Below are positions 4,638-63,793 of a DNA stretch of 64,000 nt, in pieces (the stretch's first letter is position 1; every line of letters begins with the position of its first letter). The position numbers were made by a program, and so were the translations under genes. The notes below the pieces were generated by a model. The model was not told the origin of the DNA. It did no database searches and worked only from the letters and a program-made list of their open reading frames with translations. Source of the DNA: Desulfobacterales bacterium (GTDB taxonomy: Bacteria; Desulfobacterota; Desulfobacteria; Desulfobacterales; JAAELO01); NCBI GenBank assembly GCA_024226555.1, contig JAAELO010000822.1, forward strand, positions 62,866-126,865. Direction: 5' to 3'.

Positions 4638-4640
4638 ATT

Positions 4641-4801: not shown

Positions 4802-4843
4802 TGTATTCTTATAAAATTAATAGTCCCTTAAGGACTGGTTTCT

Positions 4844-5562: not shown

Positions 5563-5615
5563 CAAACTCTGGAAAAATTCCCGTAAAGGAAAATATCTTA
5601 TGGGAACCTTACTTG

Positions 5616-23192: not shown

Positions 23193-23263
23193 AATCTTCT
23201 ATTTCTCCTATATAAAATATACCCGGACTGTATCCCGGTTTATATTTCTTAATTTGTGATTTT

Positions 23264-23281
23264 TAGTTATTAGAGGGTTCC
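23264..23281. repeat. Solo MITE right-TIR fragment
   Basis: AGTTATTAGAGGGTTCC, immediately next to the intact copy at 23286. Confidence 0.5.
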
Positions 23282-23285: not shown

Positions 23286-23415
23286 GGGAGTCTCTAATAA
23301 CTGTTCTTTTGGCGAAATACGGCTTTATTTCCAAAAAATAACTGTAATAAAATCGGCTCGTTATTTTTTGTCAAACCTTGTATTTCATCCAAAATTCTAA
23401 TTATTAGAGGTTCCT
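23286..23415 (-). mobile_element. MITE copy, intact short type, inside the hdrA-mvhD spacer
   Basis: The reverse complement aligns end-to-end with the 41456 copy. Flanked by TTTA at 23282-23285 and 23416-23419; the right-hand duplication contains the hdrA stop codon (TAA on the minus strand, 23419-23417). Confidence 0.85.
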
Positions 23416-26493: not shown

Positions 26494-27774
26494 CTACAGA
26501 CCGTACTCAGCAAGATCAGGCCCAAGATAAGTTCGTTCCTCCTCACCAAGGACACCCATTGAAAGGCAAATCAGTGTCCATAAATGGACTGTGTAATATC
26601 CTCCCTCATGAATATGTGCCAGATCCTCAATCTGAGCATGGCAGTTATGACAAGGTGTGATAACATATGGAGCTTTAGTTGCCTTTATCTGATCATATTT
26701 GATTTTTCCGTAGATCTGACGAGGCTCTGTATATCCAGCCTGAAGTGCACCTCCTCCACCTCCACAACAGAAATTATTGGATTTGTTTGGATACATCTCC
26801 ACAAGATTATCATCCCCAACAACTTTTTTAATAACATACCTAAGATCATCAGCCATTTTATCGCCCAATGATTTTCTGATAATGTTACATGGGTCCTGAA
26901 CAGTGAATTTAATGTTATCTGTATTCCAATCTGAATTCACAGGAAGTTTTCCCTCTTTTATCCATTTCGCATAATATTCAATTATGCTTTTGAATTCGAA
27001 ATTGTGAGGGATATTAAATTTTTGTAAACCCTGCCAAACAGCGAAGAATGAGTGACCACATTCAGTATTGATGAATACTTTGCAACCAAGCTCATCTATT
27101 TTTTTTACCTGGGCACGTATAATTTTTTCCCATGCATCATCATCAGCAAGAAACATACAATAGTTCTCACCACCCCACATATCAGAGTAATATGTCCAGT
27201 CAGCTCCTGCCATGTGTAAAATTTTCCACAAAGGAAGTAGTTCATCTGGCTCAGTTACAGGTTCACGAGAATTCTGATTTAATGCAAAAAAAGCTCCTTC
27301 TCTGTCAATATCTGCTTTTAGTGCTTGAAATCCATTCTGCTCTCTGCACTCTTCTGCAAGATCATCAACAGTAAACTGAAAATCCTCTAATGGAACTCCC
27401 ATAGCACCACCTCTTGAACTAACATGATGGTCACATGAGCCTAAAATACCTTTCGGTCTCTCTTCTCTTGGCCACTGTGTTCTTAGCTGATAGATAAAAA
27501 GTGGAATATTAATCTCCATTGGGCAGACTTCCATACATCTCTTACACATAGTACAAATCCAGGTCCATGGATGCTTAAGAATATCTTCATCAAGACCTAA
27601 AACTGCCATCCTGATGAATTTTCTCGGATCCATGTCCATGATCCCGGTTGCCGGACAACCACTTGCACATGTAGCACAAGTAAGGCACAGATCAAGATTT
27701 CCTTTTGGAACCAGTTCCTTAACCATTTTCTTTACTTTTGATTCATTTGAAGTAATGTCTAAGATCTTTGTCAT
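26494..27774 (-). CDS. HdrD-like Fe-S/CCG-domain protein (fused HdrC+HdrB-type)
   Basis: N-terminal CLTCATCASGCP and CTMCKRCMEVCP. C-terminal CCG-type motifs NTECGHSF, NNFCCGGGGG and TPCHNCHAQ. Confidence 0.85.
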   Translation of the reverse strand: MTKILDITSNESKVKKMVKELVPKGNLDLCLTCATCASGCPATGIMDMDPRKFIRMAVLGLDEDILKHPWTWICTMCKRCMEVCPMEINIPLFIYQLRTQWPREERPKGILGSCDHHVSSRGGAMGVPLEDFQFTVDDLAEECREQNGFQALKADIDREGAFFALNQNSREPVTEPDELLPLWKILHMAGADWTYYSDMWGGENYCMFLADDDAWEKIIRAQVKKIDELGCKVFINTECGHSFFAVWQGLQKFNIPHNFEFKSIIEYYAKWIKEGKLPVNSDWNTDNIKFTVQDPCNIIRKSLGDKMADDLRYVIKKVVGDDNLVEMYPNKSNNFCCGGGGGALQAGYTEPRQIYGKIKYDQIKATKAPYVITPCHNCHAQIEDLAHIHEGGYYTVHLWTLICLSMGVLGEEERTYLGPDLAEYGL

Positions 27775-28171: not shown

Positions 28172-28789
28172 ATGATCACAGAAAAAAGTGTTAGCCTTAC
28201 AGTTTTATTGCCGGCAGGACAACTTCCTTTAGACGTTATGGAAACAGCACATCATCTTGCAAAGAAGCATGGGTTTGGTATTTACCTTTCTACTGCCCAG
28301 AATCTTCGTTTGATCAATGTTCCGGAATCTGATGTAGAGACAGTGAAAACAACTTTGAAGAAATTGGATGTTGAATTCAAAGCACCGGGTAAATTTCCCC
28401 TCCCAAGGGTGTGTGTAGGAAAAGGACATTGTAATCTTGGTATTACTGATACCGATGCACTAAGTCACAAAATTCTTGATAAATTTTCAGGCCGGAAGAA
28501 AACTAAGGCAAAGTTCAAGATTGCAATAGCAGCCTGCGCCTGCTGCTGCTCCAACCCTAAAACCACCGATATTGGTATTATAAGCACACGTAACGGCTAT
28601 CAACTGTTCGCAGGTGGCAAGGGCGGTTTGTCTCCTAAAGTAGGCCGTAGATTTGCAAAAAATGCAGATGATAGCAAGATCCTGGAATGTATAGAAACTC
28701 TGGTCGATTATCATGATAAAAAAACAAAAAAGAAACAACGGATGTACAAACTTATTGATGCTCCTGACTTTCCTCTGACTGTGCTATAA
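28172..28789 (+). CDS. Small nitrite/sulfite-reductase-domain protein (siroheme/[4Fe-4S]-type motif)
   Basis: 205 aa. Ferredoxin-like half domain (LSTAQNLRLINV), then CVGKGHCNLGITDTDAL (C-x5-C) and KFKIAIAACACCCSNPKTTDIGI. Confidence 0.65.
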   Translation: MITEKSVSLTVLLPAGQLPLDVMETAHHLAKKHGFGIYLSTAQNLRLINVPESDVETVKTTLKKLDVEFKAPGKFPLPRVCVGKGHCNLGITDTDALSHKILDKFSGRKKTKAKFKIAIAACACCCSNPKTTDIGIISTRNGYQLFAGGKGGLSPKVGRRFAKNADDSKILECIETLVDYHDKKTKKKQRMYKLIDAPDFPLTVL

Positions 28790-28865: not shown

Positions 28866-28995
28866 TTCTGATTCGTTTATAAAACGCTTAATTTATAAAC
28901 ATTTACAACAGTTCTTTTTTTTGAATAAATCTGTTTTTCTGTCTTTTCGAACAACTTAAGTAGTCCCGGTCAAAAAGCAATTATTAGAAATTTCC
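28866..28995 (+). mobile_element. MITE copy, long type, 5'-truncated
   Basis: Aligns to the reverse complement of the 56807 copy from ...ctgattcgtttataaaa... to the right TIR CAATTATTAGAAATTTCC. The left TIR is absent. Confidence 0.6.
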
Positions 28996-29022: not shown

Positions 29023-29967
29023 ATGATTAGAAAACAATATAAAAACGTTAAGAAATGTCTTAAAAAAAGTCGTCTTGTAAACTATTTTACATTAGGTAAA
29101 TATAGTTTTTCTCCATATGTTGCCTGTGAACATGGTTGCTTATATTGTGATGGAAGATCTGAAAAATATTTTGTTTCAGGTGATTTTGAGAAAGATATTA
29201 TCATCAGACCAAATCTTCCCGATCTACTGGGAAGTGAATTAAAAAAAATCAGGGAACCAGGTCTTATCTCTATTGGTTCAGGTGTGAGTGATCCTTATCA
29301 GTCAGTTGAAAAAGGTGAAGCTATTATGACAAAGTGCCTTAAACGAATTAGAGATAATAGTCGTCTGGGTGTTTCTGTGATGACAAAATCAAATCTGATA
29401 CTAAGGGATATTGATATATGTGAAAAGATTCATGAAAAATCAGGTGTTATATTAATGGTTTCTTTAACTTCTCTTGATGAGAATATAAGACAAATTTTAG
29501 AACCTTCAGCACCTTCTTTTAGTGAAAGAGTGGAGCTTTTGAGAGAGTTTAAGAGTCGTGGAATGTATACAGGAGTTTTAGCCCTTCCTCTAATTTATGG
29601 AATAACGGACAACTTTAAACAATTAGAGTCATTATATGAAGTTTTAAAAGAAATTGATGTGAGACATGTCTACATACCTGATTCAGAAACGTATGTCTTC
29701 ACAAGAGCAACAAAGATTATTGGTTTCTATTCACTGTATGAAAATATATTAGCAGCGATATTCGTTTTACCTGAATTTCAGGGAAAAGGTATAGGATCAC
29801 AACTGATTGAGCATACCAAGACTCAGCGTAACCAGATAGAGCTTTCAGTTTATAAAGATAATGAATATAGTTACAATTTTTACAAATCACACGATTTTAA
29901 GTTTATTTGTGAACAACAGGATGAACATACCGGGTTCATGGAAATAACAATGGGCTGGAGTAAATAA
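29023..29967 (+). CDS. Chimeric ORF: radical-SAM protein (C-terminally truncated) fused in frame to the C-terminal two-thirds of a GNAT acetyltransferase
   Basis: Residues 1 to about 212 have CEHGCLYCDG (CX3CX2C) and an elongated radical-SAM barrel pattern. From about residue 215: ...YVFTRATKIIGFYSLYENILAAIFVLPEFQGKGIGSQLIEH...LSVYKDNEYSYNFYKSHDF, which is GNAT motifs A/B without the GNAT N-terminus. Confidence 0.65.
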   Translation: MIRKQYKNVKKCLKKSRLVNYFTLGKYSFSPYVACEHGCLYCDGRSEKYFVSGDFEKDIIIRPNLPDLLGSELKKIREPGLISIGSGVSDPYQSVEKGEAIMTKCLKRIRDNSRLGVSVMTKSNLILRDIDICEKIHEKSGVILMVSLTSLDENIRQILEPSAPSFSERVELLREFKSRGMYTGVLALPLIYGITDNFKQLESLYEVLKEIDVRHVYIPDSETYVFTRATKIIGFYSLYENILAAIFVLPEFQGKGIGSQLIEHTKTQRNQIELSVYKDNEYSYNFYKSHDFKFICEQQDEHTGFMEITMGWSK

Positions 29968-30765: not shown

Positions 30766-30895
30766 GGGAACCTCTAATAATTAGAATTTTTGATGAAAAA
30801 CAAGGCATAACAAAAAATAACGGGTTGATTTTACTACAGTTTTATTTTTGTTATAACGATGTGTTTCGCAAAAAGATCAGTTATTAGAGATTCCC
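30766..30895 (+). mobile_element. MITE copy, intact short type (130 bp)
   Basis: TIRs GGGAACCTCTAATAATTAG / CAGTTATTAGAGATTCCC. TTAT direct repeats at 30762-30765 and 30896-30899. Confidence 0.9.
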
Positions 30896-35418: not shown

Positions 35419-35499
35419 GGGAAGTTCTAATAACTACATTTTTATAAAACTAAAAGCTTTTATAATCTGTATTTCAATCAAAATTATTAGAGGTTACCC
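35419..35499 (-). mobile_element. MITE copy, 81-bp deletion variant
   Basis: TIRs GGGAAGTTCTAATAACT / AATTATTAGAGGTTACCC enclose only one TTTTATAAA module and the ctgtatttcaatcaaaa block. Flanks are TATT/TATA. Confidence 0.75.
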
Positions 35500-40807: not shown

Positions 40808-41416
40808 ATGAAATTTGAATATTTAATCTTTATCATATTCTTAGGTTTCCAAATTACATCTGCCCAGAGTTTTAAAGTGAAATGGGTTAATGATGGTGAC
40901 ACAATAATATTAACAAATAAGAAAAAAATAAGATATATTGGAATAAATACACCTGAAGTTGATCATGGTAATATAAAATCTGAACCATTTGCACATGTTG
41001 CAAAAAAAGCAAATGTAAATATGGTTATGAAAAGTTTCATAAATTTAAAGTATGATTTTGAAAAAAAGGATAGATATGGGAGAATTCTTGCCTACGTTTT
41101 TTTAAAAGACGGGAATTTTGTAAATGCCGAATTAATAAAAAAGGGTTTGGCTCACTGTCTTACAATAAAACCAAATATTAAATACAAAGAATTGTTTTTA
41201 AGACTTCAAAGGACAGCAATGGATAAAAAAATTGGAATTTGGAGAGATTTCAAAAACATAAAGAACAGATACATTGGAAATAAAAATTCTTTTAGGTTTC
41301 ATAAGGCAACTTGCAAAAATGGAAATAAAACAAGTCTAAGAAATATAATTAATTTTTCATCAAGATTTGAGTCTTTCTATGAAGGTTATGCCCCTTGTAA
41401 AAAATGTAATCCCTAA
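40808..41416 (+). CDS. Secreted thermonuclease (SNase-like) with C-terminal Ada-type zinc-binding motif
   Basis: Signal peptide; VNDGDTIIL...IRYIGINTPE...DRYGRILAYVF; C-terminal FHKATCKNG...GYAPCKKCNP. Confidence 0.85.
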   Translation: MKFEYLIFIIFLGFQITSAQSFKVKWVNDGDTIILTNKKKIRYIGINTPEVDHGNIKSEPFAHVAKKANVNMVMKSFINLKYDFEKKDRYGRILAYVFLKDGNFVNAELIKKGLAHCLTIKPNIKYKELFLRLQRTAMDKKIGIWRDFKNIKNRYIGNKNSFRFHKATCKNGNKTSLRNIINFSSRFESFYEGYAPCKKCNP

Positions 41417-41455: not shown

Positions 41456-41584
41456 GGGAACCTCTAATAATTAAAATTTTGGATGAAATACAAGGTATTT
41501 CTAAAAATAATGAGCCGACTTTATTACAGTTTTTTTTAGAAATAACAAAGTATTTCGGCAAAAGAGGAGTTATTAGAGGTTCCC
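41456..41584 (+). mobile_element. MITE copy, intact short type (129 bp)
   Basis: TIRs GGGAACCTCTAATAATTA / GAGTTATTAGAGGTTCCC. TATA direct repeats at 41452-41455 and 41585-41588. Confidence 0.9.
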
Positions 41585-46701: not shown

Positions 46702-48321
46702 ATGAGCCAGAATTTTAACATGACTGATTATGACAAAGAGTATAGCGAATTTAAATGGGATATTCCCGAAAAATTTAACTTTGCTGGTGATGTAATTGAC
46801 AAATGGGCAAAAGATCCCAACAAACTCGCAATACAATGGGTTGATGACGATGGTAATGAAAAAACAAGAACCTTTACAGAACTATCATCAATATCCAAAA
46901 AAGTTTGTAATGCTTTTACAAGAATGGGGATTAAAAGAGGTGATGTATTAATAATAATGCTTGGTAGAGAAGTTGAATGGTGGGAAATATTCACAGCATG
47001 CGTAAGAATGGGTGTTGTAATATCACCAGGTACTACTCAGCTTACTTCTAAAGATATTAAATACAGAATGAACTATTCAAAATCAGTTTGTTTCATAACT
47101 GATAAAGATAATGCTCCAAAACTTGAAGAAGTAGAGAGTGATTGTGAACTATTAAGAACTAAAATAATTATTGGTTCAAAAAGAGATGGATGGTTAAATT
47201 ACGATGATGAAATAGCTAAAGAAAATGATTCTTTTGAAACCGCTGATACAAGACATGATGAAGAATCAATGGTCTACTTTACATCAGGAACCACCGGTAA
47301 TCCAAAAATGACCTTACACACTCATTCATATGGCCTTGCTCATCAAACAACAGGTAAATACTGGCTTGACCATAAACCTGAAGATCTTCACTGGAATGTT
47401 AGTGATAATGGCTGGGCCAAAGCCGCATGGAGTAGTTATTTTGGACCATGGAATATGGGAGCTGCACTATTCATTCATTGCTCACCCGTATTTACACCTG
47501 AAAAAACCCTTGAACTTCTTCAAAAATACCCAATAACAACAATGTGCGGTGCACCAACAATTTACAGACTTCTTGTCCTTCAGGACCTATCAAAATATTC
47601 ATTTCCTGAACTTCGTCATTGTGTTGGAGCTGGTGAACCTCTTAACCCTGAGGTTATTGAGATCTGGAAAAAAGCTACCGATACGATTATTCGTGATGGA
47701 TATGGACAAACTGAAAGTGTTCTCCTTTGTGGAAGTTATCTTTGCATTGAACCAAGATTTGGTTCAATGGGTAAACCTTCACCTGGTGTAGACCTCCAGA
47801 TTATCGATAATGATGGTAATATTTGTCCTCCTGATACTGAAGGTGATATCGCTATCAATGTAAAAGTTAAACCTGCTGGTCTTTTTAAAGAATACTGGAA
47901 TGAACCTGAAAAAACTGCTTCATGCTACAATGGGGATTGGTATTTAACCGGAGACAGAGCAACCCGTGATAGTGATGGATATTTCTGGTTTGTTGGTCGA
48001 TCTGATGATGTTATTCTTAGTTCAGGATATAGAATAGGGCCTTTTGAGGTAGAAAGTGCACTTATTGAGCATGAGTCAGTTGCAGAATCTGCGGTTGTTT
48101 CAAGTCCGGATGAGAAACGTGGTGAAATCGTTAAAGCCTTTATTGTTCTAGCTCCTGGTTTTACAGCTGGAGATGATCTAAAAAAGGAGATTCAGGACCA
48201 TGTTAAAAAAGTTACAGCTCCATATAAATACCCAAGAGCTATAGATTTTGTTACTGAACTTCCAAAAACAGTAAGTGGTAAAATAAGACGAGTTGAATTA
48301 AGAGATGCAGAATGGAAATAG
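46702..48321 (+). CDS. AMP-forming (medium-chain) acyl-CoA synthetase
   Basis: YFTSGTTGNPKM, DGYGQTES, YLTGDRATRDSDGYFWFVGRSDDVI and PKTVSGKIRR. Confidence 0.9.
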   Translation: MSQNFNMTDYDKEYSEFKWDIPEKFNFAGDVIDKWAKDPNKLAIQWVDDDGNEKTRTFTELSSISKKVCNAFTRMGIKRGDVLIIMLGREVEWWEIFTACVRMGVVISPGTTQLTSKDIKYRMNYSKSVCFITDKDNAPKLEEVESDCELLRTKIIIGSKRDGWLNYDDEIAKENDSFETADTRHDEESMVYFTSGTTGNPKMTLHTHSYGLAHQTTGKYWLDHKPEDLHWNVSDNGWAKAAWSSYFGPWNMGAALFIHCSPVFTPEKTLELLQKYPITTMCGAPTIYRLLVLQDLSKYSFPELRHCVGAGEPLNPEVIEIWKKATDTIIRDGYGQTESVLLCGSYLCIEPRFGSMGKPSPGVDLQIIDNDGNICPPDTEGDIAINVKVKPAGLFKEYWNEPEKTASCYNGDWYLTGDRATRDSDGYFWFVGRSDDVILSSGYRIGPFEVESALIEHESVAESAVVSSPDEKRGEIVKAFIVLAPGFTAGDDLKKEIQDHVKKVTAPYKYPRAIDFVTELPKTVSGKIRRVELRDAEWK

Positions 48322-48336
48322 CATAATATAATTAAA

Positions 48337-48371
48337 AAGAAGCAGTATGGTTTTGAATCATACTGCTTCTT
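48337..48371. terminator. Perfect 13-bp hairpin after the acyl-CoA synthetase gene
   Basis: AAGAAGCAGTATG-gttttgaat-CATACTGCTTCTT. The T-tract lies on the opposite strand (the plus strand continues AAAAG), so terminator function for the plus-strand gene is uncertain. Confidence 0.45.
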
Positions 48372-48484: not shown

Positions 48485-48643
48485 GGGGTAACTCTAATTA
48501 TTAGAATTTTGGATGAAAATACAAGGCTTGACCAAAAATAACGAACCGATTCGGTTATAAAACGTTTTTCTTTATAGCCATTACAGCAGTTTTTTTGGTA
48601 ATAAAGAAGTATTTAGCCAAAAGACAAGTTATTAGAGATTCAC
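48485..48643 (+). mobile_element. MITE copy with internal module insertion (159 bp)
   Basis: TIRs GGGGTAACTCTAATTATTAG / AAGTTATTAGAGATTCAC. TTAA direct repeats at 48481-48484 and 48644-48647. Extra ggttataaaacgtttttctttatagcc module. Confidence 0.8.
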
Positions 48644-49887: not shown

Positions 49888-50736
49888 ATGGATATTAAAA
49901 CGTTTGGTGTTATTGGATCAGGTCAGATGGGAAATGGAATAGCACAAGTTGCTGCAATGAGTGGGCTTGATGTTATTATGAGTGATATAAGTCTGGACTT
50001 TGCTGAAAAAGGTCTTGCAACAATATCTAAAAATCTTGATAGAAATGTTTCTAAAGGTAAGATGACGGAGGATGAAAAAAACACTATTTTAACCAGAGTT
50101 TCAGTAACATCTGATCTTAATGATATGTCAGGAGTAGATTTTCTGGTTGAAGCTGCAGTTGAAAGAGAGGATCTTAAGTTCCAGATATTCAGAGATCTTG
50201 ATGAAATATGCCCTGATCATGTTATTCTTTCAACAAATACATCTTCTATTCCTATTGGAAGGATAGGTGCACAAACAAAAAGGCCTGGGAAGGTAATTGG
50301 TATGCACTTTATGAATCCTGTTCCAGTGATGAAACTTTGTGAAGTTATTAGAGGTCTTGCAACATCTGACGAAACTTTTAAAGTTACTATGGATCTTTGC
50401 GAAAAATTCAATAAAACTTCAGCGGTATCAAACGATTACCCTGGTTTTATTGCGAACAGAATATTGATGCCAATGATTAATGAAGCTATATTCTGTGTTT
50501 TCCAGAACGTAGGATCACCCGAAGATATAGATACAGTAATGAAACTTGGTATGAATCATCCAATGGGCCCTCTTGCTCTTGCGGATTTAATAGGATTAGA
50601 TACATGCCTTGCTATTATGGAAACACTTCATGATGGTTTTAAAGACTCAAAATACAGAGCATGTCCACTTTTAAGGCAATATGTTGAAGCTGGCTGGTTA
50701 GGAAGAAAGTCGGGCAGAGGTTTCTACAAATATTAG
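49888..50736 (+). CDS. hbd: 3-hydroxybutyryl-CoA dehydrogenase
   Basis: GVIGSGQMGNGIAQV NAD fold, SNTSS, HFMNPVPVMKL, and GFIANRIL. Confidence 0.95.
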   Translation: MDIKTFGVIGSGQMGNGIAQVAAMSGLDVIMSDISLDFAEKGLATISKNLDRNVSKGKMTEDEKNTILTRVSVTSDLNDMSGVDFLVEAAVEREDLKFQIFRDLDEICPDHVILSTNTSSIPIGRIGAQTKRPGKVIGMHFMNPVPVMKLCEVIRGLATSDETFKVTMDLCEKFNKTSAVSNDYPGFIANRILMPMINEAIFCVFQNVGSPEDIDTVMKLGMNHPMGPLALADLIGLDTCLAIMETLHDGFKDSKYRACPLLRQYVEAGWLGRKSGRGFYKY

Positions 50737-50752
50737 AGAGTCTCTGATAATC
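50731..50752. repeat. TIR-like mini-palindrome overlapping the hbd stop
   Basis: TATTAGAGAGTCTCTGATAATC; could be a collapsed element or chance. Confidence 0.25.
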
Positions 50753-50821
50753 TCTTTTTGGAGAAATTTCTGTGTTATCTCAAACAATTACTATTTGTAA
50801 TATATTAAGAGGAATTTAAAA

Positions 50822-51979
50822 ATGTCTTTTCTACTTACAAAAGAACAGCTAATGATCCAGAAAATGGCAAGGGAGTTTGCCAGAAAGGATCTTGCACCAA
50901 AAGCTGCAGAAAGAGATCTTAATCACGAATTTCCAGGTGATAGTCTTGCTAAAATGGGAGAGCTGGGATTTATGGGAATGCTTGTTTCTGAAGAGTATGG
51001 TGGAGATAACTTAGGTACGATTGCATACTCATTGGCATTAACTGAAATAGCTGCTGCATGTGCTTCAACTGCAGTAGTGATGTCAGTTCATAACTCAATA
51101 TGTTGTGGAAGTATAGAAAAATATGGATCAGATCAGCAGAAAGAAGAATTCTTAAAGCCGATGGCAACTGGAGAAATTATTGGAGCATTTGCATTAACTG
51201 AGCCAGAAGCTGGTTCAGATCCACAGGCAATGGCTTGCACGGCTGAAAAAGATGGTGATGATTATATCATTAACGGAACAAAACGTTTTATCACAACAGG
51301 AAAAAATTCTGGTGTGACAATTCTTCTGGCAAGAACTGAGCCTACAGGCAGCAAAGGTATTAGTGCATTTTTAATAACCCATGGTATGGATGGTTTTGAA
51401 GTTGGTAGAGTGGAAGATAAAATGGGGCAGTGTGCATCAGATACTACAGATCTGCTTTTTAACAATTGCCGTGTTCCTTCTTCGAGAATGTTAGGTAAAG
51501 AGGGAGAAGGTTTTACCATCGCTATGAGTGGCCTTGATGCAGGTAGAATTGGTATCGCATCACTTTCACTTGGTATTGCAAATGCAGCTATGGAAGAATC
51601 AATTAAATATGGAAAGCAAAGAGAACAGTTTGGACAAAAGATAACAGACTTTCAGGGTTTAAGATGGATGATTGCAGATATGGCTATGGATATTGAAGCT
51701 GCAAGACTCATGGTTTTAAATGCAGCGGATATAAAAGAGCGTGGTGAAAACTGTACCCAGGCAGCTTCAATGGCTAAGTGTTTTGCATCAGAGATGGCTC
51801 AAAGAGTAACAGGAACAGCGATTCAATTACATGGTGGCTATGGTTATATTAAAGAATACCCAGTGGAAAGATTCTATAGAGATGCAAGAATTACAACAAT
51901 CTATGAAGGTACAAACCAGATTCAGAGAGTTGTTATTTCAAATGAGATATTAAAAGATAAAAAGAAGAAAAAAAAATAG
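50822..51979 (+). CDS. Acyl-CoA dehydrogenase (butyryl-CoA dehydrogenase-like) with unusual poly-Lys tail
   Basis: GAFALTEPEAGSD, RWMIADMA, QLHGGYGY, and YEGTNQIQR. Ends ...ILKDKKKKKK*. Confidence 0.95.
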   Translation: MSFLLTKEQLMIQKMAREFARKDLAPKAAERDLNHEFPGDSLAKMGELGFMGMLVSEEYGGDNLGTIAYSLALTEIAAACASTAVVMSVHNSICCGSIEKYGSDQQKEEFLKPMATGEIIGAFALTEPEAGSDPQAMACTAEKDGDDYIINGTKRFITTGKNSGVTILLARTEPTGSKGISAFLITHGMDGFEVGRVEDKMGQCASDTTDLLFNNCRVPSSRMLGKEGEGFTIAMSGLDAGRIGIASLSLGIANAAMEESIKYGKQREQFGQKITDFQGLRWMIADMAMDIEAARLMVLNAADIKERGENCTQAASMAKCFASEMAQRVTGTAIQLHGGYGYIKEYPVERFYRDARITTIYEGTNQIQRVVISNEILKDKKKKKK

Positions 51980-52677: not shown

Positions 52678-52974
52678 TAAAATAAACGTAAATATTAAAC
52701 TATGATATATGGCAGATATTTAACAACTGTATAATGACACAGGTACAACTGTTAATAATAACAGAAATAAATAACGATGTTAATGTGAAATATTTAATAG
52801 AAGTCTTTTACACTATTTGGCATAAATCTTGAGATAGTTCAGAAAATAACGGAACTTTCTTTTCAAATTATTAGGTAGAACCGTTTACAATAATAATTAA
52901 AAATATAGAAATATATTAATGAGAAACAGACATAAAAAATTAGGTTTAAGTACTTGAAGGGCAGTTTTAATATA

Positions 52975-54852
52975 ATGAATTTTTTTAAAAAAACTATAAC
53001 AGCTTTATTATCATATAATGTAATACTTAAATACATGCTGCTATTTTTACAAATTGGATTTTTGTTCAGAGTAATTTTAATCATCAATTTTATTGATAAC
53101 CCTGGCCAATCAGTTCTTTATAGTTTGTTGTATGGTTTAAGGATGGATATAATAGTGTTTTCTTCATTTGCCATTATTATTTCCATTTTATATTCATTGA
53201 ATTTATTGTTCATTACAAGAACGTTATTAACTTCTTTTTTCTTTATTTATTTATTAATTGAAATTGCTACAATAAATTATATGGGGAAATTTTTTTCACG
53301 ACCAAACTATCTGTTTATAGAACATTTAAGTTCTTATACAGAAATGGTTAGTATGTTGTGGAAATTATATAAAATTCATTTAATAGTTTTGGTTCCTATA
53401 CTTATCTTTTTTACATATAATCTATCAAAATTGATTAAAAATAGCTTAAAAGAATACAATTTAAAATACAAAATATTAGCTCTTCCATTAGTAATGTTAT
53501 TTCTAATGATCGGTGCAAGATCTTCTTTTGATTCATCAACTCCAAATCAGGGGTATTATACTTTTTCAAGTTCAAATATAAAAAATGAGATTGCAAATAA
53601 CTCGATATTTTCAATACTTTATGCAACATATTTATTAAAAAAAGAAAAATTTTATGAATATGGAGAAATTTCTTCGGAAAAAGCCATTGCAAATATTAAC
53701 AAAATTAATGATTTTTCAACTTTTGATCAAAACAGTTTGTTGAGATTCCAAAAATCAACATACTCAGAAAAAAAGAATATCATTCTGATAATTCTTGAGA
53801 GTTTTGGCAATGATCATGTAGGTTATTTAGGTGGTACGAATACTACTCCAAATCTGGATTCACTTACAAATGAGTCACTATATTTTACAAACTTATATGC
53901 AACTGGAGCAAGGACTTCATGGGGACTATCATCAATTCTTACTTCTCTTTATCCTATCCCGTCACGAGAGTATATAAAAGCTGCTAAATCGCAAAAAGAG
54001 TTTTATACAATTGCTAAAACCTTAAAAAAGCATGGTTATGAAAATACATTTATTTTCCCTGGAGATGCTGACTTTGACAATATGCGTGGTTTTTTTCTTT
54101 CAAATGGTTATGATAAAGTTCTTGGAAAAGAGAACTTCAATAGAACAAAACACCTCAAATATACATGGGGATATTGTGATGAAGCACTTTATGAAAAAGC
54201 GATAGATCAGATTGAAAAATATAAAGATAAAGACAAACCTTTTTTTCTAACAATGCTAACTATCTCTAGTCACGAACCATTTGATTATCCAAAAGGCAGA
54301 GTTAAGCCATATAAAAATGCAAAATTAGAAGGTTTTGCCAACTCTATTAAATATGCTGATCACTCACTTGGAAAATTTATTGTAGAATTGAAAAAAAAAG
54401 GATTAATGGAAAATACTGTAGTTGCTATAATAGCAGATCATTGTAATGATGCTAATGGAGAGTTTGATGTGCCAATAAACAGATATAAGATTCCAGCATT
54501 AATATTATCTGAAGATTTTAAGAAAAAAAGGGGTGTAAAGTATAACAAAATTGCATCCCAGATAGATTTTGCACCAACTATTTTAGATGTTGCTGGGGTC
54601 AGTGATTATATTCCAACAGTTGGTAGTTCAATTTTACAGAACCAAAGAAATTCGGCTATTCTTTTAGCAAAAAGGAAGAATTTTGCATATTTGCTTCAGG
54701 ATAGTTTTATTGTTTATACTGGTGATTCAAATATTCAAACCTACAATTACAAATTCAAGAAAATAAAAAACATTAATAAAGATGTAATTAATGGTTTGTC
54801 ATATATATATGGTAGTAAATATCTATATGATAATAAAATTCTGTATAATTAA
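52975..54852 (+). CDS. LTA-synthase / phosphoglycerol-transferase family sulfatase-fold membrane enzyme
   Basis: Start moved to the ATG at 52975 (MNFFKK...). Five N-terminal TM helices, then ILESFG, GARTSWG (nucleophile Thr context), SSHEPF and ADHC. Confidence 0.8.
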   Translation: MNFFKKTITALLSYNVILKYMLLFLQIGFLFRVILIINFIDNPGQSVLYSLLYGLRMDIIVFSSFAIIISILYSLNLLFITRTLLTSFFFIYLLIEIATINYMGKFFSRPNYLFIEHLSSYTEMVSMLWKLYKIHLIVLVPILIFFTYNLSKLIKNSLKEYNLKYKILALPLVMLFLMIGARSSFDSSTPNQGYYTFSSSNIKNEIANNSIFSILYATYLLKKEKFYEYGEISSEKAIANINKINDFSTFDQNSLLRFQKSTYSEKKNIILIILESFGNDHVGYLGGTNTTPNLDSLTNESLYFTNLYATGARTSWGLSSILTSLYPIPSREYIKAAKSQKEFYTIAKTLKKHGYENTFIFPGDADFDNMRGFFLSNGYDKVLGKENFNRTKHLKYTWGYCDEALYEKAIDQIEKYKDKDKPFFLTMLTISSHEPFDYPKGRVKPYKNAKLEGFANSIKYADHSLGKFIVELKKKGLMENTVVAIIADHCNDANGEFDVPINRYKIPALILSEDFKKKRGVKYNKIASQIDFAPTILDVAGVSDYIPTVGSSILQNQRNSAILLAKRKNFAYLLQDSFIVYTGDSNIQTYNYKFKKIKNINKDVINGLSYIYGSKYLYDNKILYN

Positions 54853-54857
54853 ATATA

Positions 54858-54940
54858 GGGAACCTCTATTAACATTTTTTTATAAAACTTTGAGATTTTT
54901 AATCTGTATATTAAGCAGGTTTCAATCGATTAGAGGTTTA
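54858..54940 (-). mobile_element. MITE copy, short deletion variant with eroded right end
   Basis: Left TIR GGGAACCTCTATTAAC; interior as in the 35419 variant; right end ...CAATCGATTAGAGGTTT. Starts 6 nt after the stop at 54852. Confidence 0.55.
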
Positions 54941-54958
54941 TATTACAAAATCTTATAT

Positions 54959-55317
54959 GGGAATCCTTAATAATTGCCTTTTGATAGAACGACTTAAGTT
55001 GTTTTAAAAGAAATAAAAACAAAACAACGGAGTATATTTCAAAAATAAAACTGTAAACTTTATAGAGGGAAACTCTAATAATTGGAGTTTTGTCTCAAAT
55101 ACAAGGCATGATAAAAAAATTGCCTACGCTTTAAAGGTGATTCCTTTTTCGAAAAACGCAGTATTTGATCAAAAGAGCAGTTATTTAGAGATTCCCTAGA
55201 ATAAAAACTTTTTATAAACGAAACGGCTCATTATTTTTCTTATGAAGAGATTTTATAAATCAAAAGGCTTTTATAAACGTTGTATTTAAATCATAATTCT
55301 AATTATTAGAGGTTTCC
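54959..55317 (-). mobile_element. MITE copy, long type, carrying a nested short-type insertion
   Basis: TIRs GGGAATCCTTAATAATT / CTAATTATTAGAGGTTTCC. It aligns with the 56807 copy on both sides of the 55067-55196 insert. Confidence 0.75.
55067..55196 (+). mobile_element. MITE copy, intact short type, nested inside the 54959-55317 element
   Basis: TIRs GGGAAACTCTAATAATTGG / CAGTTATTTAGAGATTCCC. TAGA direct repeats at 55063-55066 and 55197-55200. Confidence 0.9.
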
Positions 55318-55491
55318 AATCTAAAAAGTTGATAAAATCTTTAATTCATATTACTTTATTGTAATTATTCATGAATGCTTTGCCCTGATTTTTTAACGGT
55401 AGGTAAGATTCATAAAATTATTAATTGCCTAAAATTTAAAAATGTGGTTTTTATGGTCACTCTATAGAAAACTTTAAATAAAGAGGTTCAA

Positions 55492-55956
55492 TTGGATTTA
55501 AAATTAATTTTTCAGAATCAGATTTTAATTTGTGCTGCTGCAAGCTGGGTTTTTGCTCAATCATTAAAAATTTTCATAATACTATTTAAACGTCACAACT
55601 ATGAGACAAAAGATCTTATAATTCATGCTGTTTTTGGGACAGGTGGAATGCCATCAAGTCATACAGCGACAGTTACAGCAATAACTCTGTCAATTGGTTT
55701 TAAAGAGGGATTTAATACCGGACTTTTTGCTCTGTCAGTAATTTTTCTTTTAATAGTTTTTAGAGATGCAACAGGTGTAAGGTTAGCATCTGGACAGCAA
55801 GCAATTACTATTAATAGAATTTTAGATGAGATTAAAATTGAAGATCAGGATAAGGTTAAAAAAATTAAGGAAGTTAAAGGACACACTCTATTAGAAGGAT
55901 TAGTTGGAAGCTTTATCGGAATAATCGTATCCCTTGCCTTCTGTTTTGCTATATAG
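55492..55956 (+). CDS. Divergent PAP2 (acid phosphatase/vanadium-haloperoxidase-related, DUF212) membrane protein
   Basis: GGMPSSHTATVTA and FRDATGVR motifs. TTG start with AGAGG RBS. Confidence 0.85.
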   Translation: MDLKLIFQNQILICAAASWVFAQSLKIFIILFKRHNYETKDLIIHAVFGTGGMPSSHTATVTAITLSIGFKEGFNTGLFALSVIFLLIVFRDATGVRLASGQQAITINRILDEIKIEDQDKVKKIKEVKGHTLLEGLVGSFIGIIVSLAFCFAI

Positions 55957-56023
55957 CGATAATTAGTTTTTTCCTTTTCAAAAAACAAATTCATACTTTG
56001 GATTTTATAATTAAATATTAATA

Positions 56024-56042
56024 GGCAGTCCTTGTGACTGCC
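56024..56042. terminator. Short hairpin between convergent genes
   Basis: GGCAGTC-cttgt-GACTGCC followed by TTTTAT. Confidence 0.4.
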
Positions 56043-56044
56043 TT

Positions 56045-56731
56045 TTATATTTCAAAGTTAAAACCTTTCTTAACTTTTTCTTTGTAAGCTTTTTTATCAA
56101 ATTCGTAAAGTCTTGCTGCTCTGTGTGAAACATCCTTTTCTATCTCATCTAGTTCTTTCAAAATAGCCATACCCATGATTTTTTTTCGAATATTTCTTTT
56201 ATCAAGCTTTCTGTCCAGTATCTTTTCATATAGTTGTTGTAACATTCTAAGTGGGAATTTTTTAGGAAGAAGTTCAAACCCTATTGGTTGATATCTTATT
56301 TTCCCCTTAAGTCTCTCATCAGCTACGTTTAATATCATCTCATGATCAAAAGCAAGTTCAGGAATATCATTTGGTTCAAACCATGCTGCATTTCTTGCAT
56401 CGGTTGAAGCTCTGAGGTTATGTTCTGAAAGATTAACAAGTCCATAAAAGGAAACAGAAATAACCTGTTCCCTTGGATCTCTGTCTGGTTCACTAAAAGT
56501 ATAGAGTTGTTCTAAAAAGATGTCTTTTAAACCAGTCTCTTCAAAAAGTTCACGCCTTGCAGTTTCTTCAAGGCTTTCACCTATTTTTGTAAATCCTCCG
56601 GGAAGAGCCCATTTTTCCTTAAATGGTTCGAGATCTCTTTGAATTAGAAGAATTTTTAAATCCTCAGTATCCAGACCAAAAATAACGCAATCAACTGCTA
56701 CTGCGGGTCTTTCATATTTATATGTAAACAT
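56045..56731 (-). CDS. Nudix hydrolase domain fused to NrtR-type winged-helix (Nudix-related transcriptional regulator)
   Basis: Nudix box [23 protein letters not shown]. The C-terminal about 80 aa (...[22 protein letters not shown]...) resembles the NrtR DNA-binding domain. Confidence 0.75.
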
Positions 56732-56806
56732 TTGGTAACTCCTAATAGTGTCTGATTAACACATAGATAGTGTGGTCCAAACACAATGTCAAGGGGATTT
56801 TGTTAT

Positions 56807-56997
56807 GGGAATCTCTAATAACTGTCCTTTGACCGAACTACTGGCTTTCTTCGAAATAAAAAACTGTAAACTTTATAAAATAAACCTTTTTATAAACGAA
56901 TCAGCTCGTTATTTATTTCTCAAACAGAGGTTTTATAAAACTGAAAGCTTTTATAAACGCTGTATTTCAATCAAAATCCTAATTATTAGAGTTCCCC
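56807..56997 (-). mobile_element. MITE copy, intact long type (191 bp, two TTTTATAAA modules)
   Basis: TIRs GGGAATCTCTAATAACT / CTAATTATTAGAGTTCCCC. TTAT at 56803-56806 and 56998-57001. Ends 4 nt from the stop codon of 57002-58357. Confidence 0.85.
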
Positions 56998-57001
56998 TTA
57001 T

Positions 57002-58357
57002 TTAACTTTTAAAGGATTGCAGACCTTCACCAAGTTTTAAAGGGTCACCAGTTGGTATTAGTTCAACAAGCTCAGGTAATTGCTCTATTGAAAGACCTAT
57101 TTCATTAAACTTTTTTTCGATATCATCTGTGTGGATAGTTCCAATATTGATTCCAGCATTGAACCTGGTCATAATAAGGTCAGAGATATACAATATATTA
57201 ACAAGATCTTTACTATCTTTAAATGCATTTTCAGGATAGTGATGATATCTGATTGAGTCTGTTAATAGCTTGGAAAAGTTCCATTTTTCAGCCAGTTTCT
57301 CACCCACCTGAACATGAGTTATACCAAATAGTTCCTTCTCCATTGTTAGTATATTTTTATCTTTTTGAAGTTCTCTGTAAAAAAAAGGTTTAACATCTTT
57401 TGCATATTGATCCAGAACAACAATACCAATATCATGAATCAAACCAGCTGTATACCCAATTCCAGAGGGAACAGTTTTGGTTTTAATAGCAATCATCTCA
57501 GCTATAGCAGCAGACCCAATAGCATGATGGAAAAGACCTCCTTTGCATAATGAATAACCTGAGGAACTTTGAGAGAAATATTGTTTTACAGAGTTTGTTA
57601 TTACAACTTTAACCAACTGATTTAAACCAAGAACGATAATAGCATCATCAATAGATTCGATTTTTCTTCTTATTGAAAAATAACTGGAGTTACAGAGTTT
57701 AAGAATTTTGGCAGATATGACCTGATCTTGTCTAACTTCGGATGCAATTTTCTTTATGTCATAAACTTCATCATTTAAAAGTCTCAATATTTTTAACGCT
57801 ACCTGTGGAATTGGTTGTAGTTTATCCACAGCTTTTAAGATCTCTTTTTGTCCAGGAGTTTTAAATGAATGTTCTTTCTTATCGTCATAACTTAATGGTT
57901 TTATGGTGCATATAAAATTTTTAAGATTAAGCTCCAGGCAACATGAAAAAAACCCCCCTGTTTCGGAATATTCAATTTTAATACCCTTTTTTCTTAGAAT
58001 CGAGTTTGCAACTTCAGCGGTTCTTCCTCCAATATCCAAAACCATATCCTGTTCACTAACAGGACCTACTAAGGCTCCACCAGCAATATATGCCGTCATA
58101 TTTTCAATTTCAGCTCCAAGATTAATCATTTTATCTATGAAAATTGGTATACCTGTAGATGCATATTTTTCCGGATAATCTGTTGAAAGTTTTGAAACCG
58201 GCTCTGAGAGTAAGATGTGAATTAATCCACCGATTTTATTTTTTCTGTCAAATATAACAATACCAAGACATGTCCCTAAAAAGGCCTGTAAAATTGATGT
58301 TTTTTCTTGTTCAATTGCATAATTTCCAGATGTTACATGTATTGTCCTAATAGGCAT
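57002..58357 (-). CDS. CheD (chemoreceptor glutamine deamidase)-HDOD fusion protein
   Basis: N-terminal FLGTCLGIVIFD...IGGLIHILLSEP...EKYASTG...AYIAGGA...DIGGRT...SETGG follows the CheD pattern with its Cys/His. The C-terminal about 270 aa has HDOD features (...PQVALKILRLLNDE...LCNSSYF..., GLIHDIG). Confidence 0.8.
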   Translation of the reverse strand: MPIRTIHVTSGNYAIEQEKTSILQAFLGTCLGIVIFDRKNKIGGLIHILLSEPVSKLSTDYPEKYASTGIPIFIDKMINLGAEIENMTAYIAGGALVGPVSEQDMVLDIGGRTAEVANSILRKKGIKIEYSETGGFFSCCLELNLKNFICTIKPLSYDDKKEHSFKTPGQKEILKAVDKLQPIPQVALKILRLLNDEVYDIKKIASEVRQDQVISAKILKLCNSSYFSIRRKIESIDDAIIVLGLNQLVKVVITNSVKQYFSQSSSGYSLCKGGLFHHAIGSAAIAEMIAIKTKTVPSGIGYTAGLIHDIGIVVLDQYAKDVKPFFYRELQKDKNILTMEKELFGITHVQVGEKLAEKWNFSKLLTDSIRYHHYPENAFKDSKDLVNILYISDLIMTRFNAGINIGTIHTDDIEKKFNEIGLSIEQLPELVELIPTGDPLKLGEGLQSFKS

Positions 58358-61499: not shown

Positions 61500-62162
61500 A
61501 TGTGTGGAAGGTTTGCTTTTTACAGTACTATTGCTGCAATAAATAAAAGTATCAATATAAAAGTTATCACCTGCTCAGTTGAATCTTCATATAATATAGC
61601 ACCACTTAGTGAAGTTTTAACTGTGATCAGAGATGGTGATCTGAAACTCGGAAAACTGAAATGGGGTTTTGTTCCATCATTTGCAAAAGATACTAAATTA
61701 GCATCAAAAATGATCAATGCCAGATTTGAAACCATATCTGAAAAACCGAGCTTTAAAAGATCATACAGTAAAAAAAGATGCATTATTCTGGCAAATGGTT
61801 TTTATGAATGGCGCAAGGAGAAAGATGGAAAACAACCATACTACATCTATATCCCAACAAGAGAAATTTTAACATTTGCAGGAATATTTGAGATCTGGAA
61901 TAAAAAATACAAATCCTGTGCAATTATCACCAAAGATTCATCATCAGATATATCTAAAATACACCCGCGAATGCCAGTTGTTTTAAAAGAGAATGCTTTT
62001 ATGGACTGGCTTGATAAAGATATTACTGATAAAGATGCTTTAAATGAAATTATTCAGGAAAACTGTGAGGATAGTTTCAGCTTCCACAAGGTTTCAAAAG
62101 ATGTAAACTATACTCAGAAAAATTCAAAAAAATGTATATCTGTTTTAACCGAATCTCTCTGA
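61500..62162 (+). CDS. SOS-response-associated peptidase (SRAP; YedK/HMCES family)
   Basis: Starts MCGRF (catalytic Cys2), with YNIAP, MINARFET and FYEW motifs. Begins 12 nt after the helicase stop. Confidence 0.9.
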   Translation: MCGRFAFYSTIAAINKSINIKVITCSVESSYNIAPLSEVLTVIRDGDLKLGKLKWGFVPSFAKDTKLASKMINARFETISEKPSFKRSYSKKRCIILANGFYEWRKEKDGKQPYYIYIPTREILTFAGIFEIWNKKYKSCAIITKDSSSDISKIHPRMPVVLKENAFMDWLDKDITDKDALNEIIQENCEDSFSFHKVSKDVNYTQKNSKKCISVLTESL

Positions 62163-62282
62163 AAAAATGTAATAGGAGAATGTAATTTATCAGGTTGTCC
62201 CCCCTGAAAAATTGTTACTTTGGAGAGTTCATGGGTATAAAAAGATAGAGAAAGACTTTTCCTCTTCAATGTCCCGATTTTT

Positions 62283-62333
62283 TTATTGTGAAGCTTGCGT
62301 TTAATACCCGCTTGCGGCGGGGTTTTTTATTTG
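62283..62333 (+). repeat. Repeat A: about 50-bp element ending in a GC-rich hairpin plus T-tract
   Basis: TTATTgtgAAGCTTGcgtttaataCCCgCTTGCGGCGgggTTTTTTATTTg; an inverted partner lies at 63652-63702. Confidence 0.5.
62307..62329 (+). terminator. Rho-independent terminator of the helicase-SRAP unit
   Basis: CCCGC-ttgcg-GCGGG followed by GTTTTTTAT. It is a GC-rich island in AT-rich DNA, 145 nt after the SRAP stop. Confidence 0.6.
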
Positions 62334-62359
62334 AAGACGCTTGATACAGTTACTTTTCC

Positions 62360-63212
62360 CTATTTTTTTATCAATTTATCAGGTAGAGCGTAATATTTAT
62401 CATGAATTTTCTGCATTATCTTTGATTCTCGGATTTTAGCCATCTTATCCCAGATTTTATTTGCAAGATCAGGATGTTTCTTTATAAATTGATGTGAAAA
62501 CATTAAATAGTAGGGTTTCATAACAAATGGTGGTTCTAATTTTACTATGTTTTTATATTTATGGTTATTTTTAATAGTAAAATCAATTTTTTTAGGATGA
62601 TCTGTAATAACGTAAAATCGTCTTGCCAATAGTTTATTCAAATTATTAATTGAGGTTGTCGCACCATCATCAACAAGAAATCCACGTTTTTTGAGTTCAC
62701 CTACTGACGAATACCCTAAAATAGCGCCAATACGTCCTTTTAGGTTTGTGAATTTTTTACCATCCCATTGAACTGAAGAACCTAACATTTTGTAAAAGGC
62801 ATAGGAGTTAATTGTAATTCTTCGCTTTGGATCTGCCTTTCCGTTTTTCATAGGATAAACGCCATATTTCAATCGTCCTTTTTTGAAACTGGAGGTAAAA
62901 GCTCCTTGTCTTTCATTTTTTAAGTTGGTCAAGACACCTTCTCCAGTTAGTTCGATAATAATTTAATTTAATTTGTGGTATTTCTTCGTCGACTAATTGC
63001 AGTAACTCTATAGTAACTCCGGGCTTTTCCCAGTTAAATTTAGTTCCATTCCCAATTAATAAAGGGAAATTGTGAGAATTTCCAGTAGTCAATTTTAAAA
63101 CAATAGGGCTTTCAGCTAGAAGTTGATTTTTATTTCCTAATAAAAAAATCATTATAATGATAAATAAATGAAATAAATTTTGTCTTACCGCATTTTTAAA
63201 AAATATTTTCAT
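62360..63212 (-). pseudogene. Family-3 periplasmic solute-binding protein, frameshifted
   Basis: ORFs 62913-63212 (signal peptide ...RTNWRRCLDQLKK*) and 62360-62932 (...NLKNERQGAFTSSFKKGR...) are one gene. The minus-strand A6 run (plus-strand T-run 62916-62921) has one base too many; A5 would give ...CLDQLKNERQGAF.... Confidence 0.75.
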
Positions 63213-63245
63213 GTTTTCTATCCTTTAATTGTTTTTATACTATAG

Positions 63246-63373
63246 GGGAATCTCTAATAACTGATCTTTTGGCGAAATACTTTGTTATTTCCAAAAATAA
63301 CTGTAATAAAATCGGTCGTTAATTTTTGAAAAACCTTGTATTTCATTCAAAATTCTAATTATTAGAGGTTCCC
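63246..63373 (-). mobile_element. MITE copy, intact short type (128 bp), in the 5' leader of the broken SBP gene
   Basis: TIRs GGGAATCTCTAATAACTG / CTAATTATTAGAGGTTCCC. ATAG direct repeats at 63242-63245 and 63374-63377. Confidence 0.9.
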
Positions 63374-63403
63374 ATAGGTAATAAATGGATTGAGTTATAC
63401 GAT

Positions 63404-63434
63404 ATTATAAACATCTACTCATATCACATGTCAA
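63404..63434 (-). promoter_or_regulatory. Candidate promoter for the SBP gene, upstream of the MITE
   Basis: Minus strand has TTGACA (63434-63429), a 19-nt spacer, then TATAAT (63409-63404). The spacer is longer than optimal. Confidence 0.35.
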
Positions 63435-63568
63435 TTAAATTTGTAGGATCTGGCTGCCTTAAAAACAATAAGTGATATTTTTTTTTTGCTCTCCTCAATG
63501 TTGAAAATTTTAAATAAATAGAATCCCAGGGCAATCCAATGGTTCTTATTTAATACATCTGCGATGAA

Positions 63569-63599
63569 CAAGTCTGATGCAGAAAAAGCATCAGACTTG
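63569..63599. other. Perfect 12-bp stem-loop of unknown function
   Basis: CAAGTCTGATGC-agaaaaa-GCATCAGACTTG; no adjacent T-tract on either strand. Confidence 0.4.
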
Positions 63600-63651
63600 A
63601 AATTGCTCATCCATTCACTGTTAAACCCATGTTGTTATGCTTTCGACTGCA

Positions 63652-63702
63652 TAAATAAAAAAACGCCGCAAGTGGGATTTTACACACCAAGCTTTGTAAT
63701 AA
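63652..63702 (-). repeat. Repeat B: inverted partner of repeat A
   Basis: The minus strand reads TTATTacaAAGCTTGgtgtgtaaaatCCCaCTTGCGGCGTTTTTTTATTTa. It shares the exact 9-mer CTTGCGGCG and flanking blocks with 62283-62333. Confidence 0.45.
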
Positions 63703-63793
63703 ATTATATTATCTTTAGTAATTCCTACAAAATAATTTGCGAAAGAAGATATCTTATTCTAATGTAATTTATAAAGAATTTAGGGAGTTGCTC

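Follow-up and report, generated by a model that had tools for sequence, protein, structure and literature searches.

The intergenic pile-up and copies A to D

We analysed a stretch of 64,000 nucleotides (the window), which is part of a 137-kb contig in an uncultured Desulfobacterales MAG. In the window, a 640-bp gap lies between the stop codon (54852) of a gene of the LTA-synthase/sulfatase family (52954-54852, plus strand; the database call starts at 53353 and comprises 499 aa) and the start (55492) of a divergent PAP2 (DUF212) gene (55492-55956, plus strand). An earlier note on this DNA had placed three members of one repeat family in this gap and a fourth, uninterrupted member downstream. 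The presence of the three members, the identities of the neighbouring genes and the coordinates of all four copies, here called A to D, were confirmed.

For comparison we used a sister MAG (GCA_024224625.1; loci L001, L064, L065 and L066), which was 99.75-99.9% identical to the window over approximately 48 kb, and a third assembly (GCA_024449855.1; 94-97% identity), of which locus L041 was approximately 97% identical and locus L063, the outgroup at the pile-up, approximately 95% identical. Further, a JGI contig (L042) with approximately 80% identity was included. All genomes compared were MAGs.

Copy A (54858-54938, plus strand) is an internally deleted mini member of 81 bp located 5 bp past the stop codon of the LTA-synthase-family gene. 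It is flanked by a duplication of TATA at 54854-54857 and 54939-54942, and is orthologous in L001 (100% identity) and L063 (94%). The comparison with L001 and L063 revealed an orthologue with a canonical left terminal inverted repeat (TIR), GGGAACCTCTAATAACTG, and copy A aligned with the 80-bp copy at 35419-35498. Both observations indicate that copy A is a true family member despite its internal deletion.

The long copy B (54959-55317, plus strand) spans 359 bp including the nested copy C. Its left arm (54959-55066) begins with a TIR, GGGAATCCTTAATAATTG, that contains two mismatches, and ends with the first copy of TAGA (55063-55066); its best other match was L057:71-165 (90.5% identity). The right arm (55201-55317) ends with a TIR whose reverse complement is GGAAACCTCTAATAATTAG, and was 82% identical to positions 56876-56991 of copy D. 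The two TIRs of B thus carry 2+2 mismatches, and B lacks a target duplication, with ATAT at its left and AATC at its right. Between the arms lies copy C (55067-55196, minus strand), a 130-bp short element in inverted orientation relative to B, with the TIRs GGGAAACTCTAATAATTG and GGGAATCTCTAAATAACTG. C matched the family profile with an E value of 1.4e-30, and its best match elsewhere was L046:2599-2726 (84%). Copy D (56807-56997, plus strand), which served as the reference for B, is an uninterrupted long copy of 191 bp located 1.5 kb downstream of the pile-up, where it abuts the stop codon of a CheD/HDOD gene. TTAT is duplicated at 56803-56806 and 56998-57001, and the orthologue of D in L041 was 98.4% identical.

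Copy C is bounded by a perfect 4-bp direct repeat, TAGA, at 55063-55066 and 55197-55200, the two copies of the target-site duplication of C. When C and one TAGA were removed from B, the restored 225 bp aligned end to end with D, as had been claimed earlier (155/187 identities, 83%). The alignment score was 186, compared with 19.5 +/- 6.3 (maximum 40) in 300 shuffles. The alignment crossed the junction unbroken (...AAACTGTAAACTTTATAGAATAAAAACTTTTTATAAACGAA... in restored B versus ...AAACTGTAAACTTTATAAAAT-AAACCTTTTTATAAACGAA... in D), and the junction falls in an optional block, module 2 (CTGTAAACTTTATARAATAAA..TTTTATAAACG). When 13 long and medium copies from the window and metagenome contigs were aligned, the sequence was continuous across this junction in D and its L041 orthologue, in L053:352-573 and in the 158-bp copy with module 2 at 48486-48643 (minus strand), a third independent witness. 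Non-adjacent flanks of 55067-55196 in other long copies, which the earlier note had named as a refutation, were thus not observed in this alignment.

The perfect TAGA repeat and the colinearity of the restored sequence with three independent long copies, together with the 4-bp duplications that are the rule in the family and the fit of the C site to the target consensus (see below), support the view that an existing family member received C by transposition with a duplication of 4 bp, as the earlier note had proposed. This is a clean, internally controlled MITE-into-MITE insertion in a bacterium. At the pile-up locus itself, internal evidence suggests that B was inserted first and C second.

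The window derives from a MAG, and repeats would be a classic cause of misjoins, so that the arrangement might be an artefact of metagenome assembly in the window contig. However, B and C each differ by more than 10-15% from every other copy compared, leaving no long identical repeat for a misjoin; at the junctions of C, a consensus target is duplicated perfectly and in the manner typical of the family; and two other assemblies show the same order of sequence in both flanks. We therefore consider a misassembly extremely unlikely.

A separate insert was observed in the D orthologue of the sister MAG. Within its right TIR (corresponding to window 56988/56989), L001 contains 73-75 bp (5499-5573) that form two small hairpins with an AG repeat at the borders, and that neither the window nor the outgroup L041 contains. 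No other copy was found in the sequences compared and there was no Rfam match. A MITE has thus received a small insert here as well, one unrelated to copy C.

Ends, sizes and target sites of the family

The family is characterized by the TIR GGGAAYCTCTAATAAYT of approximately 15-18 bp, a second inverted subterminal motif (GAAMTAC/GTATTTC) and an AT-rich body. The 15-nt TIR core GGGAAYCTCTAATAA, allowing up to 3 mismatches, occurred 40 times in the window compared with 7.1 +/- 2.7 times in shuffled sequences. It was located at both ends of the copies, and the TIR columns were nearly invariant among 14 aligned copies. Using a profile built from six short copies, followed by later profiles, with a cut-off of E<0.01, we detected 13 loci; with A added and C counted apart from B, the window contains 15 copies. 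They total 2085 bp, accounting for 3.3% of the window and for 18% of the DNA between its genes. All copies are intergenic and none overlaps an ORF of at least 120 aa. A single ORF runs across a family copy (56772-57005, over D), and it had no Pfam match.

The copies range from 76 to 225 bp in length and fall into modular classes of approximately 80, 128, 160 and 190-225 bp. A backbone of approximately 128 bp with up to three optional blocks yields copies of 150-225 bp, and A and 35419-35498 are deletion derivatives of approximately 80 bp. Copy C belongs to a core subfamily, beta, together with L046, L051, L055 and L061, and the other short copies of the window belong to subfamily alpha.

Among the other copies in the window, five short copies possess a target duplication: 15641-15767 (minus strand, TTAA), 23286-23415 (plus strand, TTTA), 30766-30895 (minus strand, TTAT; shared with L065), 41456-41584 (minus strand, TATA; shared with L064/L065) and 63246-63373 (plus strand, ATAG). 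The copies at 1101-1231 (minus strand, truncated at one end) and 3700-3851 (minus strand, 152 bp) are both shared with L066. A 21-bp remnant consisting of a TIR only (4616-4636) ends exactly 4 bp (TATT) before the 161-bp copy at 4641-4801 (minus strand), and a truncated right-end remnant (23255-23281) ends exactly 4 bp (TTTA) before the short copy at 23286. Further, there is a degenerate copy at 28868-28995 (minus strand), the 80-bp mini copy at 35419-35498 (plus strand), which has the same type of deletion as A, and a half-copy remnant at 50736-50790 (plus strand) directly after the stop codon of a 3-hydroxyacyl-CoA dehydrogenase gene. At the position of this half-copy, the relative with approximately 80% identity has a fuller copy (L042 1711-1863).

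The copy at 63246-63373 lies in a segment of 1.58 kb (62149-63728) that is replaced by 51 unrelated bp in L041 (97%). Besides this MITE, the segment holds a split ORF resembling a solute-binding protein gene (62360-63212, minus strand).

Module 3 of the long copies (..AGAGRTTTTATAAA..CTTTTATAAACG), present at 55240-55279 and 56920-56959, resembles a decayed TIR end plus a second copy of the tail of module 2. Module 3 was 65-73% identical to the junction between the end of C and B, and the long variants may be scars of earlier nesting.

Perfect 4-bp direct repeats were located exactly at the ends of 17 of 35 independent full copies from the window and the fetched loci. A chance 4-bp match at this base composition is expected in approximately 0.6% of copies by our estimate. 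The duplications varied in sequence (TTAA, TTTA, TTAT, TATA, TAGA, ATAG, TAAT, TATG, TCAA, TCTT, ATAA and TAAA). When the 17 empty sites were rebuilt and oriented by the element, T was present at position -4 in 15/17, A at position 4 of the duplication in 15/17 and A at position +7 in 14/17, giving a roughly palindromic consensus, T-N3-TNNA-N3-A. The site of C in B matched all four informative positions of this consensus. The family thus exhibits the small size without coding capacity, the conserved TIRs, the duplications of constant length and variable sequence, and the filled and empty sites that characterize MITEs.

We folded three short full-length copies including C, and each formed a full-length hairpin (-35 to -38 kcal/mol, z -4.7 to -6.0; copy C, -38 kcal/mol, z -4.7). 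The 81-bp copy A formed no full-length hairpin (z -1.6), and the consensus fold retained only the TIR stem and the subterminal GAAMTAC/GTATTTC stem. Such stable hairpins, and the strictly intergenic location of the elements, often directly past stop codons, would also be expected of a structural repeat maintained by selection (a REP/BIME-like repeat, a terminator or a small-RNA hairpin), in which case the apparent nest would be a recombination mosaic. However, only 2/20 pairs covaried (covariation term -0.12), so that covariation provides no argument for a selected hairpin; an Rfam 15 search of 54800-57100 detected no match at E<=1; and terminator-like sites were not located inside the elements. 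Further, variable 4-bp direct repeats flank 17 copies, and REP elements are not known to make target duplications; filled and empty sites exist; and in a mosaic, colinearity with three copies would not be expected to resume precisely at a 4-bp repeat. A selected structural repeat is thus a very unlikely explanation. REP/BIME elements, which are mobilised by RAYT, are imperfect palindromes of 20-40 nt without TIRs or target duplication. The elements described here are 80-225 bp long with TIRs and duplications, and an assignment to REP/BIME was rejected accordingly.

The family was sought elsewhere by several routes. A 24-mer, GGAAYCTCTAATAATTARRATTTT, located the family in the metagenome JQIA01, where 18 contigs matched, and in two further metagenomes. 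When plasmids were searched by BLAST with the consensus of the family, only insignificant matches of 24-31 nt appeared. A scan of the genome collection with an 18-mer TIR pattern, which was too short, returned 38 loci that were all chance matches, none of them recognised by the family HMM, and a scan of viral contigs returned one chance match without similarity to the window. A full-text literature search found neither the TIR sequence nor a MITE in Desulfobacterales, and exact look-ups of four proteins (a NUDIX, a FapA, an HdrA-like and an SRAP protein) gave no match. The family is previously undescribed, but it is an ordinary kind of bacterial MITE.

One of the two matches outside JQIA01 is a 286-kb contig (L050, Ga0136654_1000001) with 54% G+C. 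It contains a related AT-rich family copy (5471-5611) with a perfect right TIR in a far more G+C-rich genome. Horizontal spread of the family or its transposase could have caused this.

Filled and empty sites and the age of the B+C allele

The B+C site is filled in the window and empty in both L001 (approximately 99.8% identity) and the outgroup L063, and both of these possess copy A. Relatives with the long element but without the insert, which the earlier note had suggested looking for, were sought; B without C is absent from L001 and L063, as both lack B+C altogether. The empty site reads ...TATTA(C/G)AAAATTATATT^ATCTAAAAAG and the filled site in the window reads ...TATTACAAAATCTTATAT[B+C]AATCTAAAAAG. 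A simple insertion with a 4-bp duplication into the empty site does not produce the junctions of B, for which an extra CT and a changed base are required. Similarly, neither precise excision nor deletion between direct repeats fits as the link between the filled and empty sites.

The 22-bp spacer between A and B exhibited approximately 5 differences from L001, whereas there were 2 SNPs in 3.8 kb and 1 SNP in 1.7 kb of the flanks. The core of the spacer, TATTACAAAAT, is common to the window and L063, indicating that the filled allele derives from the same locus. Differences from the sister MAG were clustered elsewhere as well, with 18 in 148-451, 6 in 48267-48338 and 4 in 51004-51032 over a background of approximately 0.05%, and a further cluster at 41356-41395, in addition to that at 54939-54946; several clusters adjoin MITE copies. 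This pattern fits short recombination imports or a strain-mixed MAG consensus. The degenerate ends of B and its lack of a target duplication suggest that the B+C allele is old, an age that would have allowed these ends and the duplication to decay and C to insert. Further, the missing duplication and the differences in the spacer make the allele look recombined in rather than fresh. We therefore lean, by a small measure, towards an old allele that moved into the window strain, or was replaced in the sister, by short-tract homologous recombination. A strain-mixed MAG consensus would yield the same pattern of filled and empty sites and SNPs.

On a strictly clonal tree, gain would be most parsimonious, as the site is empty in both relatives including the outgroup, and two fresh sequential insertions, B and then C, could have occurred in the window strain after its split from the sister MAG. 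However, the flank divergence is only approximately 0.05-0.15%, so that a fresh B should retain its duplication and a close source copy. B has no such duplication; the closest other match to one of its arms had 90% identity over a length of 95 bp, and the identity to D was 83%. Several additional changes in the 22-bp spacer would be needed at the same time, and two events in one 280-bp gap are improbable while 12 other sites remained unchanged. Two fresh insertions are thus unlikely.

B and C occur together or are missing together, and they might have arrived as one unit of 359 bp via the outer ends of B, the nest having formed elsewhere. Such a move would be mechanistically possible if the outer TIRs suffice. 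However, no 4-bp duplication surrounds B, the left TIR of B has two mismatches in the conserved core, and no second composite resembling B+C was found in any sequence compared. Moreover, a clean insertion leaves unexplained why the left-hand spacer of B, an orthologue of the spacer of the sister, has diverged from it. We judge a composite move to be quite unlikely, and return to the old, recombined allele as the preferred reading.

The earlier note had also concluded that the family was mobile in this lineage. The present results bear this out, with the qualification that most copies appear to be old and fixed. Twelve other family sites were identical between the window and the sister MAG, among them 1101, 3700, 4641, 30766, 35419, 41456, 48486, the remnants at 50736 and 52663, A and D. 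Some copies are common to the relatives with approximately 95% identity, and one remnant is apparently orthologous in the relative with approximately 80% identity. The sites shared with the sister, the presence of D in L041 and the orthologue of 50736 in L042 argue that the bulk of the family is old and has become fixed. Further, the correspondence of the half-copy at 50736 to a fuller copy in L042 suggests that the family predates the split from this relative.

More recent change is indicated by B+C itself and by observations in the sister MAG. Window and sister synteny ends at approximately 29984, just past the stop codon of the ORF at 29023-29967, and a long family copy without duplication (L065 5173-5334) is located exactly at this break. 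L065 4111-5345 contains a second three-copy pile-up (copies within 4111-5334), in which this long copy is preceded by the two other copies and by different genes. One of its copies (4532-4660, target duplication TAAA) apparently lies, by eye, inside a cupin-like ORF; the ORF reconstructed with the copy removed was 1 nt out of frame, and this is a weak hint only.

Mobilisation and relation to known elements

The window has 46 non-spurious ORFs with a minimum length of 120 aa, and a Pfam scan of 44 of them (all except 26494-27774 and 28172-28789) detected no transposase domain. A transposase was likewise missing from the genes listed for L064-L066 and from 20 metagenome loci, and the segment at 62149-63728 contains the broken solute-binding-like gene and no transposase. 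TIR pairs separated by 0.7-3 kb in all loci compared enclosed ordinary genes and no transposase, and approximately 250 kb of DNA compared yielded no autonomous element with matching ends. The lack of a transposase in the scanned ORFs, the sister contigs and the metagenome loci suggests that the elements are non-autonomous.

TIRs, a symmetric target and duplications that are constant in length (4 bp) but variable in sequence are the marks of a DDE transposase dimer that makes a 4-bp staggered cut. On this basis we propose the following mechanism. The AT-rich body would allow the whole element to form a hairpin, and a transposase encoded outside the window would bind both element ends. Integration would then proceed through a staggered cut of 4 bp at T-N3-TNNA-N3-A targets, which are AT-rich and roughly palindromic, and 4 bp would thereby be duplicated. 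C itself integrated at TAGA in the interior of the older B and split it into two arms, as the alignments above show. The B+C allele, probably old, would have reached the window strain or been lost from the sister by short-tract homologous recombination. Insertions would persist only between genes, and copies would consequently pile up in the same few gaps, in or beside each other. The enzyme may be a DDE-type transposase of a 4-bp-duplication family, IS5-group or IS701-like; this assignment is a guess from the duplication length and the start of the TIR. Taken as a whole, the explanation comprising insertion of C into B, a transposase acting in trans and an old recombined allele is very probable.

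IS5-group and IS701 elements (ISfinder table) generate 4-bp duplications, possess GG ends and use AT-rich, TA-containing targets of the YTAR type. The family shares the 4-bp duplication with these groups, and probably also the GG ends and the preference for AT-rich targets. YTAR fits only the TTAA type of target, and TATA, TTAT, TAGA, TCAA and ATAA do not conform, so that the family was not filed with either group.

The family resembles known bacterial MITEs such as Nezha of Anabaena/Nostoc, Correia/NEMIS of Neisseria and RUP of S. pneumoniae in its size range (80-230 bp) and non-coding nature, and likewise in TIRs, a duplication of fixed length, many diverged intergenic copies and a capacity to form hairpins. 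It differs from the described bacterial MITEs in the TIR sequence, and no partner IS was found in the sequences compared. Correia/IS630-type MITEs and RUP duplicate TA. The duplications of the present family are 4 bp long and some lack TA (TCAA, TCTT), and we rejected a relationship to Correia/IS630-type elements. The mobility of Nezha was argued from filled and empty sites in close relatives (PMC3184786), and the same argument applies here.

The best-described MITE of the former Deltaproteobacteria is Chunjie of Geobacter uraniireducens, which is AT-rich and 178-235 bp long with conserved TIRs and stable hairpins (PMC3184786, PMC10969869). The present family is similar in AT-richness, variable size, TIRs and hairpins. 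Chunjie possesses TIRs of 21 bp and direct repeats of 9 bp (PMC3184786), and the TIRs of approximately 15-18 bp with a different sequence and the 4-bp repeats identify the present family as a different one; the transposase of Chunjie is presumably different as well.

Nested MITEs have been mentioned for Epichloe (PMC3227409) and in connection with MITE-Tracker (PMC6171319). In plants and fungi, a MITE within a MITE with an intact duplication is used in the same way, as a proof of transposition and a read-out of the target, but the hosts are eukaryotes with thousands of copies. A literature search of limited reach found no description of a nested MITE in bacteria.

In the window, the family has a density of approximately 230 copies per Mb, which is above the maximum MITE density of 123 per Mb in a census (PMC11602168), although our value comes from one window only. 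The copies fill 18% of the intergenic DNA and none of the coding DNA, so that one nest per 15 copies is about the expectation for random intergenic insertion and unremarkable in itself. The full copies at 4641 and 23286 each follow a truncated older copy at a distance of exactly 4 bp, and at 23286 the intervening 4 bp (TTTA) are the target duplication of that copy. Under uniform intergenic insertion, two or more such abutments have a probability of approximately 0.001 (two cases in one window), which hints at re-use of targets or insertion beside existing ends. The nest, the two 4-bp abutments and the three-copy pile-ups in two gaps raise the speculative and rather doubtful possibility that the transposase preferentially integrates into or exactly beside existing copies, producing a dense, self-targeting family. 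If so, the modular long variants would be built by repeated nesting and deletion, and the driving transposase would be one not yet tied to any described MITE. The case is mildly unusual, and only in its local density and exact 4-bp abutments.

These results define a repeat family in uncultured Desulfobacterales by its ends, duplication length, extended target and size classes; existing knowledge of how MITEs work is unchanged. The family can serve as a marker for binning and strain typing, and it probably gives rise to contig breaks and rearrangements in these MAGs; in one case, synteny ends exactly at a copy. Further, the set of TIRs can be used to trace the partner transposase.

The sole Rfam match in the window was a cobalamin riboswitch (RF00174, 103.6 bits) at 540-731 on the minus strand, upstream of a cobalamin uptake and biosynthesis cluster visible in L066.
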